Positions 39,247-43,132 are shown, numbered from the stretch's first letter. The stretch: DNA of 64,000 bases from an uncultured Candidatus Poseidoniales archaeon (GCA_905182715.1 CAJJCP010000013.1:11990-75989), one strand, 5' to 3'. Notes: generated from the letters alone by a model not told the origin. Made by a program: numbers and translations.

Positions 39247-39273
39247 TATATGCTCTGGGCCGAACCATCAATC

Positions 39274-39435
39274 ATGCCGAAAATCTCTTTGGACATGCCA
39301 GCGGAATTGGTTGAAGACCTCCGCAAACATGTCGGAGACCAACATAAATTTGTGAGTTTGGCGGATGCGGTACGTACTGCATGCCGTAAACTCCTCGATC
39401 AGTTGGATGAAATTGATGCTCGGCATGGAAGGTAG
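39274..39435 (+). CDS. Ribbon-helix-helix (CopG/Arc/MetJ) regulator
   Basis: MPKISLDMP.EL...L......KF.S.ADAVR.A.R.LL. Confidence 0.8.
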   Translation: MPKISLDMPAELVEDLRKHVGDQHKFVSLADAVRTACRKLLDQLDEIDARHGR

Positions 39436-39443
39436 TGAATCAT

Positions 39444-40013
39444 ATGGTGACAACAGAAGAAGCAGAAAACGCAGTGAAAATCTTGCTCGAGTACCTTGAG
39501 GGCGATGCTCAACGTGAAGGATTGCAAAAGACTCCTCGACGTGTCATTGAATCATGGGATGAAATATTTTCCGGGTATACGACCGATACTGAAGAACTTC
39601 TCCAATCGACATTCAATGGCGAAGGATATGATGGCATAGTTCTCCTCCGCGATATTGAATTTCATTCGACATGTGAACATCACTTACAACCATTTAGTGG
39701 TCGTGCACATATTGCATACATCCCCGTAGATCGTATTGTTGGAATCAGTAAATTAGCACGTATTGTTGACGCTCACGCTCATCGATTACAGAATCAAGAA
39801 CGCATTACCAAAGGCATCGCAGATGACCTGGAAAAGCACCTCAATCCGCTTGGTGCAGCAGTCATCCTTGAGGCGTCGCATGGCTGTATGCGTTGCCGTG
39901 GTGTACGAAAACAAAACTCAGTCATGACGACATCGGCAATGCGCGGCGTGTTTTTCGATAAGGCAGAACCTCGCCAAGAACTCATGCAGCTCATACAATC
40001 AAGACCACTCTGA
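39444..40013 (+). CDS. folE: GTP cyclohydrolase I (FolE type)
   Basis: Motifs REGL..TP.R, CEHHL.PF, GISKLAR, RLQNQER and H.CM..RGV. Confidence 0.96.
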   Translation: MVTTEEAENAVKILLEYLEGDAQREGLQKTPRRVIESWDEIFSGYTTDTEELLQSTFNGEGYDGIVLLRDIEFHSTCEHHLQPFSGRAHIAYIPVDRIVGISKLARIVDAHAHRLQNQERITKGIADDLEKHLNPLGAAVILEASHGCMRCRGVRKQNSVMTTSAMRGVFFDKAEPRQELMQLIQSRPL

Positions 40014-40022
40014 GGCGTTAAT

Positions 40023-40685
40023 ATGACCGAGCATATCTTGTGAACTCTCGGGTAAGCATACCGTTGATTCGGCTTCGGACCTCGGAACCGTGTACAAGAT
40101 TGTCGAAATATTTCATTCCGTCCAAGGAGAGGGCGTACATGCAGGAATACCTCATGTATTCATCCGCTTCGGGAAAATGTAACCTCCAATGCGAATGGTG
40201 TGATACCGACTTCGAAACATTTGATGAAATGGCTGCAGTCGACATACTCGGTGAGGTAATGAAGTACCCTTCGAAAAGAATTATCTTTCACTGGTGGTGA
40301 GCCGATGCTGAATGATTTATGGCCACTCCATCGTTTGTTGAAGTCCAGAGGATACCAGTTATCCTGTGAATCAAATGGGACCATCGAGATTCCAGAAGAT
40401 TTACTCGATTGGATCTGTATCTCCCCTAAAGACCAGATGTACCCTCAAGTGAAAATTCGACAACGTACGGGGGATGAACTCAAATGCGTTTATGTTGGTC
40501 AAGATTTAACACTCTATGATGGATTAAAAGATGGCTTCAACCACCACTTCTTGCAACCTTGTTATATCGATTCTGAAAGTGTAGAATGGAATGGTAAGAA
40601 TTTTGCAATGACTGAAGCCGTTGTGAAACAATCACCGCCTTGGCGTTTGAGTCTCCAAACGCATAAGTGGATGGGGGTTGACTGA
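40023..40685 (+). CDS. queE: 7-carboxy-7-deazaguanine synthase, with at least two indels (near 40175 and 40288); start uncertain
   Basis: EIFHSVQGEG...FIRFG, CNLQCEWCDT, TGGEP, ESNG, ISPK and WRLSLQTHK lie across three frames. The shifts are at AAAA and TTT runs. Confidence 0.88.
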
Positions 40686-41837
40686 ATGAAACGAGCAGTC
40701 ATGGCACTCTCTGGTGGAATGGATTCGACCGCACTCTTGATGCGGCTTTTAGCCGATCAATACAAAGTAGATTGTATCTCGTACAATTACGGTCAAAAGC
40801 ACAGTGTGGAGTTGGAACGAGCGCAATTGAACATCAAATATCTTGCATCAAAAGGATTCGAAATTGAACATAAAATAATCGACCTTTCGAGTGCAATGGG
40901 TGCGTTTGAAAGTTCACTTCTCAGAGGAGGTGAAGACATTCCTGAAGGCCATTATGAGGCTGAACAAATGAAGTCAACCGTGGTGCCGAATCGGAATGCT
41001 ATATTCGCCTCAATAATGTATGGATATGCTCTCTCAGTTTCGAATCGTGAGAGTTGCAAAGTTGAAATTGCTCTCGGTGTTCATTCCGGAGACCATGAAA
41101 TCTATCCGGATTGCCGACCTGAATTTTATCAGGCAATCGAACACGCTTTTGCCATTGGAAATTGGGACAGTGAAAACATCTCATTCACCCTACCCTATCT
41201 CGACGGTGATAAGGCATCCATACTCGAAGATGCCCAAAAGGCCATTCTTCAGCTTGACCTTGAATTCAACACGGTGTTTGCGAATACAAATACCTCCTAT
41301 AATCCTGATGAAGAAGGGCGAAGTTCTGGAATGAGTGGCGCCGATATTGAGCGTATTCTTGCCTTCCACAGCCTTGGACTCACCGACCCCGTCGATTACC
41401 AAACCACTTGGGAAGAAGTGCTTAGAAACGCCCTCGAGGTTGAAAAATCGCATAAGGAAGAAGATTACCGTCAACGTCTCACTGAAGAACAATACTTAGT
41501 CACACGTCAAAGTGCTACAGAACGCGCCTTTACGGGGATCTATTGGGATGAAAAAAGAGATGGCGATTACTTTTGCATCTGTTGTGGTCATCTTTTGTTT
41601 ACTTCTTCTATGAAATTCGATTCAGGTTGCGGTTGGCCATCATTCCACACGGAGCATCCCGATGCAGGAATCAAGCACATCGAGGATTACACGCATGGAA
41701 TGCAAAGAGTTGAAGTTCAATGTTCAAAGTGTGACGCACATTTAGGACATATCTTCGAAGACGGGCCACGAGCATTCGGTGGGCAAAGGTATTGCATCAA
41801 TTCAGCTTCACTGGATTTTGAGGAGATGGAAGAATGA
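40686..41837 (+). CDS. queC: QueC (7-cyano-7-deazaguanine synthase) fused to methionine-R-sulfoxide reductase MsrB
   Basis: SGGMDS, YGQKH..E, TVVPNRN and YPDCRPEF, followed in frame by TERAFTG, CICC, KFDSGCGWPSF, HLGHIF.DGP and RYCINS. Confidence 0.9.
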   Translation: MKRAVMALSGGMDSTALLMRLLADQYKVDCISYNYGQKHSVELERAQLNIKYLASKGFEIEHKIIDLSSAMGAFESSLLRGGEDIPEGHYEAEQMKSTVVPNRNAIFASIMYGYALSVSNRESCKVEIALGVHSGDHEIYPDCRPEFYQAIEHAFAIGNWDSENISFTLPYLDGDKASILEDAQKAILQLDLEFNTVFANTNTSYNPDEEGRSSGMSGADIERILAFHSLGLTDPVDYQTTWEEVLRNALEVEKSHKEEDYRQRLTEEQYLVTRQSATERAFTGIYWDEKRDGDYFCICCGHLLFTSSMKFDSGCGWPSFHTEHPDAGIKHIEDYTHGMQRVEVQCSKCDAHLGHIFEDGPRAFGGQRYCINSASLDFEEMEE

Positions 41838-42283
41838 CAACACGTATACGAAGATTTGTAGAGACTGACACAGGGCACAGAGTTCCGAATCATAAAAGTA
41901 AATGCCGACACATGCATGGTCACCGTTACCGTTTCGAAGCAGAAATTGAAGGCGATACTGTCCAAGAATCAGGCGTCAGTGAAGAAGGAATGTTGATGGA
42001 TTTTTCAGATGTGAGTGCGATACTGATGGAACATGTTCATGACATCGTAGATCACGCATTTGTGGTATATGAAGGCGATTCTGAAGCAAGAAACGCTTGT
42101 GCTGCAATGGGCGACGGGCATCGGACAGTTGTAGTACCGTTCATCCCCACTGCAGAGAATCTCGCCAAATGGGCTTTTGAGCAGGTTCAACCACATATCA
42201 CGACTGCTTATGGAAATCGATTGAAACTCGTTGCTATGCATGTGCGAGAAACTCCGAAGAGTACGGCATCATGGATTCCATGA
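41834..42283 (+). CDS. queD: 6-carboxytetrahydropterin synthase
   Basis: Motifs GHR....KC..MHGH.Y, GM.MDF, DH, PTAEN.A and ETP. Confidence 0.92.
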   Translation: MTTRIRRFVETDTGHRVPNHKSKCRHMHGHRYRFEAEIEGDTVQESGVSEEGMLMDFSDVSAILMEHVHDIVDHAFVVYEGDSEARNACAAMGDGHRTVVVPFIPTAENLAKWAFEQVQPHITTAYGNRLKLVAMHVRETPKSTASWIP

Positions 42284-43132
42284 TTACTCTTCTTCTGTCG
42301 GCGTAATTTTACGTCGTCGTTGGCTTTTCCATTCAGCATTTCCTGCGACGTATTGGAGAGCAGTCGTCGCATCGAGGATACCACCTATGAGGCGTGTTGC
42401 CTCATCATCCGTAGGCATGGAACGCATTAAATTCCGCCTTAAATTCTGTGAAAAACTTTCTCTTCGGTCGTCATTACCCGGCAAGACTTGGCCAAATTCC
42501 AAAATCCCTTGGTTGAGAATACGCTTCAGAGTGGGATTCATGCTTCTTTCGAGTGGTACGATATTGGGGATGCCGGGATTCGAACCCTGTGATGAACGTA
42601 CAGTTGAGCGATGGAGTTCATAGACACAAGCATTGACTGCATGTGATAAATTCGCAATTGGATAGCCTTCCCATGTGGGCAAGGTCACCAAGAAATCACA
42701 GAGTGCAAGGGATTCTGTAGACAGCCCCATTCCCTCTTCTCCAAATACAAGCGATACTGATTCGGTAAAAGAGTCCAATCGTTCCGCCATTTCCCACGTA
42801 TAGGTGAAGTGACGAAAGGTCGTCTTTGCACCGATTTCACGCTTACCTGAAGTTCCGATTGTCAAACTGCAATCGGCTGTTGCAGCTTCGAGTGTGTCGA
42901 ATACTTGACAAGTATCAAGGACGCGTCCAGCATGCTTTGCTCGATTCCTTGCTTCAATATCATCGGGTGAGCAAGTGGGCGATACAAGGCGAAGAGAATC
43001 AAATCCATAATTCAGCATCGTTCTACACACTGCCCCAAGGTTTCCAGGGTGAGATGCTCCCACCAATACGATATGCAGGGAATAGTTTCGGCGAGGAAGT
43101 TGGAGAGTTTGTCGATCGCCCATCTCACTCAT
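42284..43132 (-). CDS. trmJ: SPOUT tRNA methyltransferase TrmJ/TrmH family
   Basis: Motifs IVLV....PGNLGAVCR.M.N.G, LVFGEE..GL and YPIANLSHAV. Confidence 0.88.
   Translation of the reverse strand: MSEMGDRQTLQLPRRNYSLHIVLVGASHPGNLGAVCRTMLNYGFDSLRLVSPTCSPDDIEARNRAKHAGRVLDTCQVFDTLEAATADCSLTIGTSGKREIGAKTTFRHFTYTWEMAERLDSFTESVSLVFGEEGMGLSTESLALCDFLVTLPTWEGYPIANLSHAVNACVYELHRSTVRSSQGSNPGIPNIVPLERSMNPTLKRILNQGILEFGQVLPGNDDRRESFSQNLRRNLMRSMPTDDEATRLIGGILDATTALQYVAGNAEWKSQRRRKITPTEEE

Follow-up and report, generated by a model that had tools for sequence, protein, structure and literature searches.

The window analysed here, a stretch of 64,000 nucleotides from an uncultured Candidatus Poseidoniales archaeon (GCA_905182715.1, CAJJCP010000013.1:11990-75989), encodes a QueC domain and a MsrB domain within one uninterrupted open reading frame, which lies among the genes for preQ0 synthesis. 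The frame (40686–41837, plus strand) opens with an ATG, specifies 383 amino acids and has no internal stop codons. We read its product as a genuine bifunctional polypeptide: the frame, the two intact domains, the operon, the distribution of fused, split and msrB-less states and the unlinked genes of the sister family are observed, and the two activities, the independence of the domains and the route of merger are inferred. It is probable that the protein carries two independent enzymes on one chain, and that these were brought together through the merger of translationally coupled neighbouring genes. Both domains look catalytically competent, as judged from their sequences. In genomes of this kind the fused protein is the only copy of both functions. 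Among the best 120 matches listed, the public records label it either MsrB or QueC, and never both.

The domain libraries agree on the layout of the protein (Table 1). The Pfam matches are strong for both QueC (E = 1.6e-40, 139.3 bits against a cut-off of 22) and SelR/MsrB (E = 4.5e-48, 162.5 bits against a cut-off of 24.9), and NCBIfam assigns residues 257–382 to MsrB (TIGR00357, 162.6 bits against a cut-off of 113.05). The NCBIfam model for QueC, TIGR00364, gives 135.7 bits where its equivalog cut-off stands at 150.3, and this shortfall is probably the reason why NCBI names the protein as MsrB only (JGI: QueC). A preliminary description, made from the sequence alone, had claimed that a complete QueC runs without a stop into a complete MsrB from about 41455 within a 383-residue frame. 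The frame call and the domain matches bear this out, with the TIGR00357 match starting near base 41454, and the motifs that it had listed were all found, namely two CxxC pairs (C297/C300 and C346/C349), GCGWPSF (C315) and RYCINS (C370). Cysteines occur in the fused protein at positions 30, 124, 143, 297, 299, 300, 315, 346, 349 and 370. The same description had stated that the junction lacks a start codon of its own, and this too stands: from codon 220 to codon 320, ATG, GTG or TTG occurs in frame only as GTG 245 (41418), TTG 304 and ATG 309, and the sole candidate near the junction, GTG 245, is a valine codon. It encodes a nearly invariant residue within the C-terminal helix of QueC and shows no sign of use as a start.

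Table 1. Features of the queC-msrB locus and its neighbours, in positions of the window.
Feature	Position	Strand	Basis and remarks
folE, GTP cyclohydrolase I, 192 aa	39435..40013	+	Pfam GTP_cyclohydroI, E 5e-67; TIGR00063, 213.8 bits (cut-off 181.6)
queE, 7-carboxy-7-deazaguanine synthase	40023..40685	+	three frames in this assembly; 3' piece matches TIGR04508
queC-msrB fused ORF	40686..41837	+	383 aa plus stop; ORF call, Pfam, NCBIfam, database matches, run contigs, same-genus genomes
QueC domain, residues 3-229	40692..41372	+	Pfam PF06508; PP-loop SGGMDS at residues 9-14
Former zinc site of QueC, residues 204-220	41295..41345	+	S204, S214, S217 and D220 in the family Cys columns
QueC C-terminal tail and junction, residues 230-264	41373..41477	+	predicted continuous helix 242-264 into the MsrB N-terminal helix
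MsrB (SelR) domain, residues 265-379	41478..41822	+	Pfam PF01641; C297/C300, C346/C349, C315, C370
queD, 6-carboxytetrahydropterin synthase, 149 aa	41834..42283	+	Pfam PTPS, E 1.6e-26; TIGR03367, 82.4 bits, just under cut-off 89.25
SpoU-type methylase, convergent	42284..43132	-	downstream of queD

It could be asked whether two separate genes have been run together into one frame by an indel or an assembly error, and this is almost certainly not the case. Indels do occur nearby, with three in queE, and msrA is split elsewhere in the genome, but when contigs of four other public sequencing runs were aligned over the region, no inserted or deleted bases were found within 40686–41837. Contigs from two of these runs cross the junction without gaps, one spanning 40890–42264 (run X2, record 19) and the other 41415–41567 (run X6, record 26). 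The fusion is also present as a single full-length match (query residues 1–4 to 378–383) in 33 of the 34 other genomes of the same genus. All 120 of the best 120 matches listed from a collection of 5.8 billion proteins carry both PF06508 and PF01641. These matches are 343–399 amino acids in length, share 66–98% identity with the window protein, and have as named sources Candidatus Poseidoniaceae, Poseidoniales archaeon or Euryarchaeota archaeon. With the bridging contigs, the same-genus genomes and the database matches all keeping an open frame, an artefact of this kind was rejected. The preliminary description had held that a stop and restart at the junction, in reads or in relatives, would speak against the fusion. 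Near-identical contigs and genomes of the same genus keep the frame, but a stop and restart does appear in other genera, in the form of natural split alleles.

The order folE-queE-queC/msrB-queD was read in the window, in agreement with the preQ0 operon that had been proposed for it. These four genes, folE, queE, queC and queD, make preQ0 from GTP, with folE encoding the first enzyme. The stop codon of queE (TGA, 40683–40685) abuts the ATG of the fused gene at 40686, and, as had also been described, queD overlaps the stop codon of the fused gene, its ATG at 41834 lying over the TGA at 41835–41837. Contigs from an RNA library (run X18) cover 39400–40784 and 41517–42300, and do not bridge the junction. 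Upstream of folE lies a 61-residue ORF (39250–39435) whose last base (39435) opens the folE start codon; no Pfam family matches it at E 0.001 or better, and the operon may begin with it. At the other end, a terminator-like hairpin with a T-rich tail (42268–42284) lies across the queD stop codon (ORF end 42283), which is weak evidence for termination given that two terminator-like sites were observed in the region against 3.9 expected by chance.

In this assembly, queE is interrupted by three single-base insertions (near 40027–40031, 40171–40174 and 40285–40289), and at each of these places one base is absent from the contigs of all four public runs compared. When set against the intact QueE of a relative (G018, 219 amino acids, 93% identical), the window supplies residues 5–51 in frame 1, residues 50–88 in frame 2 and residues 84–219 in frame 3. 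The 3' piece falls under the cut-off of TIGR04508 (E = 1.6e-23) because it is only a piece of the gene. The insertions are either an assembly error beside short homopolymers or the mark of a strain-specific pseudogene.

The genome to which the window belongs (1.78 Mb in 36 contigs, 73% complete) yields a single QueC match that exceeds the Pfam cut-off, besides a weak one of 20.5 bits, and a single SelR match. It also encodes an arcTGT-type protein of 765 amino acids with TGT, C2 and PUA regions (contig C22, L016:301-2595, minus strand), which would serve as the consumer of preQ0. ArcS (DUF5591), which would take preQ0-tRNA on to archaeosine, was not found in this genome, which at 73% completeness is no proof of its absence. 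The msrA gene (PMSR family, C24:7762-8212) is present as two overlapping pieces in different frames, likely as the result of a frameshift.

The N-terminal domain shares with canonical QueC (PDB 3bl5, 2pg3) the PP-loop, the fold, the conserved columns and the partners in the preQ0 operon. Among 20 diverse QueC sequences, that of the window included, S9, G10, G11, D13 and S14 do not vary, and neither do 17 further columns. Foldseek aligned this part of the protein with QueC of B. subtilis (3bl5_E, TM (target) 0.77). It also matched the QueC-like Cap9 (9nto_B, TM (target) 0.74), a protein that acts on another substrate in CBASS. The window protein differs from canonical QueC in its score under the NCBIfam equivalog cut-off, in a helical tail, some 25 residues long, at its C-terminus, and in the loss of its zinc site: where the QueC consensus of our alignment A2 reads ..TCY..SCGxCGSC.., the window has S204, S214, S217 and D220 at the four cysteine columns. 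For a domain that scores under the equivalog cut-off and is without the zinc site, we infer the exact QueC chemistry from the operon.

The zinc-site cysteines are absent from every locus whose sequence was inspected for them, whether fused, split or msrB-less; one relative with 50% identity (P0125) keeps all four. On viral contigs in IMG/VR, 551 of 600 candidate stretches encode a QueC relative. The best 80 of these (45–64% identity) were examined, and 71 were found to be without the four cysteines and 9 to have them, the classes being assigned by position mapping from the alignments; a MsrB part was seen in none of the 80. Cys-less QueC is thus found in split, msrB-less and viral-contig relatives. 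The loss of the zinc site therefore predates the fusion and extends well beyond it, and the fusion does not account for it. The possibility that the MsrB zinc ribbon stands in for the lost zinc site of QueC was considered and rejected, since Cys-less QueC also occurs without msrB and on viral contigs.

The C-terminal domain is similar to zinc-type MsrB proteins (E. coli 6sym, Burkholderia 3cxk) in sequence (51–54% identity), in structure (TM (target) 0.89–0.92), and in the possession of two CxxC pairs and of resolving and catalytic cysteines, but it lacks a separate start, and a helix links it to QueC. The phmmer match to E. coli MsrB (6sym) has an E-value of 2.8e-40, and Foldseek aligned the domain to 3cxk_A with a TM (target) of 0.92 and an rmsd of 1.0 over 124 columns. 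We take C370 (in RYCINS) to be the catalytic cysteine and C315 (in GCGWPSF) to be the resolving one. Each of the 45 fused or split MsrB sequences compared retains both of these, along with C297/C300, C346/C349 and H352/H355. Mean identities for QueC and MsrB, respectively, are 69.0 and 72.6% among long-linker fusions, 68.8 and 66.9% among short-linker fusions, and 66.7 and 65.3% among split pairs. The two domains are therefore about equally conserved (mean pairwise identity 65–73%), so that MsrB is not decaying.

An AlphaFold2 model, for which the input alignment held 37 fused sequences, has a mean pLDDT of 88.5 and a pTM of 0.80 for the whole two-domain chain. Its secondary structure shows a predicted helix from residue 242 to 264 that passes through the junction, followed by another at 267–274, with block pLDDT values of 87–94. 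A pTM of 0.80 would appear to be above what is expected for an arbitrary arrangement of the two domains.

Matches to the fused protein are widespread in the order Poseidoniales, a name taken here from the source names of the matches, and were found in 181 of 201 genomes that are at least 80% complete. The two genes are not joined in every genome. The 51 loci that were read ORF by ORF, which were picked to cover genera and are not a random sample, comprise 27 fused, 18 split, and 6 in which no msrB follows queC. Fused proteins fall into two classes, the linker of one being about 20 residues longer than that of the other: the long-linker class is represented by 18 loci (379–387 amino acids; genera g1, g12, g20 and part of g23) and the short-linker class by 9 (362–372 amino acids; g13, g7, g24 and parts of g5 and g17). 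Genera g5, g17 and g23 each hold both fused and split alleles.

Split pairs either overlap by 4–61 nt or share a frame, with one stop codon and then the msrB ATG after 0–3 nt; in one split locus (G140) the first start is ambiguous. The in-frame arrangement was found at L024, L025 and L026 (g14) and at L027 (g17), and these alleles are one mutation from fusion or fission. Recoding of the intervening stop codon was considered for them and rejected, since the codon may be TAG, TGA or TAA depending on the genome, and an ATG follows each within 0–3 nt.

A genome-wide search for the SelR family found it in none of five msrB-less genomes (83–98% complete), and the msrB-less genera retain the same QueC type and the same operon. 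The C-terminal tail of QueC is likewise the same in unfused and msrB-less proteins. In a search across the class, all 17 of the listed Poseidoniales split pairs were adjacent on one contig, and within the Poseidoniales genomes searched msrB was seen only adjoining queC or fused to it. In the sister families f4 and f5, on the other hand, all eight genomes that have both genes carry them on different contigs. Because the genes are apart in the sister families and adjacent in Poseidoniales, the entry of msrB into the preQ0 operon is placed within the order or at its base; fusion followed at a later point, and msrB disappeared from some genera. The gene fusion can in this way be seen in all of its stages in one archaeal order: unlinked, adjacent, sharing a frame apart from a single stop, joined, and lost.

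The history of these states was followed on a tree built from concatenated QueC and MsrB sequences of the 45 msrB-bearing loci (L005–L058), a tree of QueC alone being too poorly resolved for use. The short-linker forms make up one side of a branch with 98/90 support, which was present in 97% of bootstrap trees. The long-linker forms require three changes on this tree, with well-supported branches forcing at least two, and the fused or split state requires at least three changes against a minimum possible of two. A single clade of all 27 fused rows was not rejected (p-AU 0.32), and for the 18 long-linker rows as one clade p was 0.025, a value that applies to a group named after a tree had been inspected. 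Given the result for the single fused clade, a claim of at least two independent fusions was not upheld, and what is claimed is repeated change of state only. A clade of all rows from family f1 was rejected (p-AU 1.6e-9). The tree of the locus is thus at odds with the taxonomy of the genomes, a sign that the queC-msrB locus has been exchanged between families.

The fusion architecture itself has been known since 2018. An archaea-only fusion of an N-terminal AANH domain (IPR020536) with MSRB was described in a review by Maupin-Furlow (2018; Antioxidants 7:124, PMC6211008), with UniProt A0A2D6JNB0 as the example and with Cys162, Cys334 and Cys389 marked. There, the AANH domain is modelled on ThiI, and its substrate, X, is given as unknown; the word QueC has no occurrences in that text. 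The two proteins are alike in their N-terminal PP-loop/AANH domain, C-terminal MsrB domain and conserved cysteine pattern, and Cys143, Cys315 and Cys370 of the window differ from the published positions by a constant offset of 19. On the strength of this offset, the window protein very probably belongs to the same family as AANH-MSRB, the latter having been called with a longer N-terminus (Maupin-Furlow, 2018). The name AANH-MSRB was found in that paper only among the full-text literature searched, and papers that pair QueC with MsrB, or Poseidoniales or Marine Group II with archaeosine or Msr, concern unrelated subjects as far as their titles and the openings of their abstracts tell. In contrast to the published account, Pfam, NCBIfam and the folE-queE-queC-queD context here name the N-terminal domain as QueC. 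What is added is this identity and operon context, the series of states across the order, and the conflict between locus tree and taxonomy; the AANH domain of substrate X gains a name, QueC, and a putative substrate, CDG.

If the names given to the two domains are right, the QueC domain would convert 7-carboxy-7-deazaguanine to preQ0 with ATP and ammonia, feeding the archaeosine pathway, and the zinc-type MsrB domain would reduce methionine-R-sulfoxide in proteins. The chemistries of the two reactions are unrelated, and the domains would most likely work independently of each other. In the history proposed here, msrB would first have taken up a place in the preQ0 operon of the order Poseidoniales, flanked by queC and queD; the overlapping or abutting queC and msrB would have been translationally coupled, and loss of the stop/start boundary would then have led to their merger. 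The immediate effect would be the obligatory 1:1 co-expression of the only MsrB of the cell with the enzymes of preQ0 synthesis. Independence of the domains is favoured because some genera have no msrB, because the linker has two lengths, because the genes are unlinked in a sister family, and because the QueC reaction has, to our knowledge, no redox step.

The preliminary description had offered two readings of the fusion, a coupling of deazaguanine synthesis to oxidative-stress repair or redox control, and simple hitch-hiking by MsrB. The second, as a merger of neighbours, fits better with genera that have QueC but no msrB, with varying linkers and with the split state of 18 of the 51 loci, and the first is not favoured. 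A functional coupling, in which MsrB physically cooperates with QueC or with the preQ0 pathway, is considered unlikely. In a habitat that is sunlit and oxic, MsrB might repair oxidised methionines of QueC, QueE or arcTGT; alternatively, preQ0 synthesis might be gated by the redox state of the MsrB cysteine pair. Such cooperation would be in keeping with the order-wide linkage of the genes (17 of 17 listed split pairs adjacent, and a second msrB not seen in the genome of the window), with the repeated changes between fused and split states on the gene tree, with the existence of two linker classes of which the short one is a well-supported group (98/90), and with the helical junction predicted by AlphaFold2 at a pTM of 0.80. 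These points are, however, to be set against the unrelated chemistry of the two reactions, the retention of the same QueC and operon in genera without msrB, the variation of the linker by about 20 residues between classes, and the unlinked genes of the sister family; moreover, a single origin of all fused forms was not rejected (p-AU 0.32), leaving repeated independent fusion unsupported. That MsrB is the working partner of the zinc-less QueC, sustaining the preQ0/archaeosine pathway under photo-oxidative stress or switching QueC through the redox state of Cys315/Cys370, we regard as very unlikely. If it were true, the placing of the cell's only msrB within the preQ0 operon throughout the order would reflect a tie between tRNA modification and the repair of oxidative damage, and cooperation between the two domains would raise the importance of the fusion. 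We know of no link between deazaguanine or archaeosine synthesis and the repair of methionine sulfoxide.

It may also be argued that the N-terminal domain, rather than making preQ0, is a QueC-like adenylating enzyme with another substrate. The NCBIfam score under the equivalog cut-off, the loss of all four zinc cysteines and the structural match to Cap9 (9nto_B, TM (target) 0.74) could each be read in this way, as could the account of Maupin-Furlow (2018; PMC6211008), in which the domain is assigned only to an AANH/ThiI-like fold with a substrate X. In every locus examined, however, the gene lies between queE and queD with folE upstream, and in the genome of the window, which has arcTGT, it encodes the sole QueC over the Pfam cut-off. 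All 22 invariant QueC columns are retained, and the best structural match of the domain is QueC itself (3bl5). A substrate other than that of QueC is on this evidence highly improbable, and the reading of the protein as QueC joined to MsrB is kept.

Outside the order, the fusion was sought in a HMMER pass over 1.84 billion cluster representatives, of which the best 150 were considered. Among these there was one full-length QueC+SelR representative (P0119, 68% identity), after which the bit score falls from 606 to 301 at the next match. Twenty of the 150, chosen by length or by the presence of two matched stretches, were scanned with Pfam, and the multi-stretch matches in this set were intein-split QueC (n = 8), SelR-SelR tandems, one QueC-QueD, one HNH+QueC and two fragments of fused proteins. 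MsrB is found as a module of other multi-domain proteins, such as MsrA-MsrB (3e0m, 7e43, 5fa9) and the Trx-MsrA-MsrB protein PilB, but those partners take part in the repair pathway of MsrB itself or in its reductant relay, which QueC does not. The queC gene, for its part, readily takes fusions and insertions, as in QueC-QueD (P0169) and the intein-bearing QueC proteins; QueC-QueD brings together two reactions of a single pathway, inteins are selfish elements, and MsrB is involved in neither case.

Several of these architectures can be described further. The intein-bearing proteins (P0122, P0124, P0134, P0140, P0141, P0148, P0149 and P0164) are close QueC relatives with 37–55% identity, in which the intein mostly lies after about residue 140, with one near residue 225, and LAGLIDADG domains are present in some. 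The QueC-QueD fusion P0169 is 425 amino acids in length, and P0135, at 456 amino acids, has an HNH endonuclease domain N-terminal to QueC.
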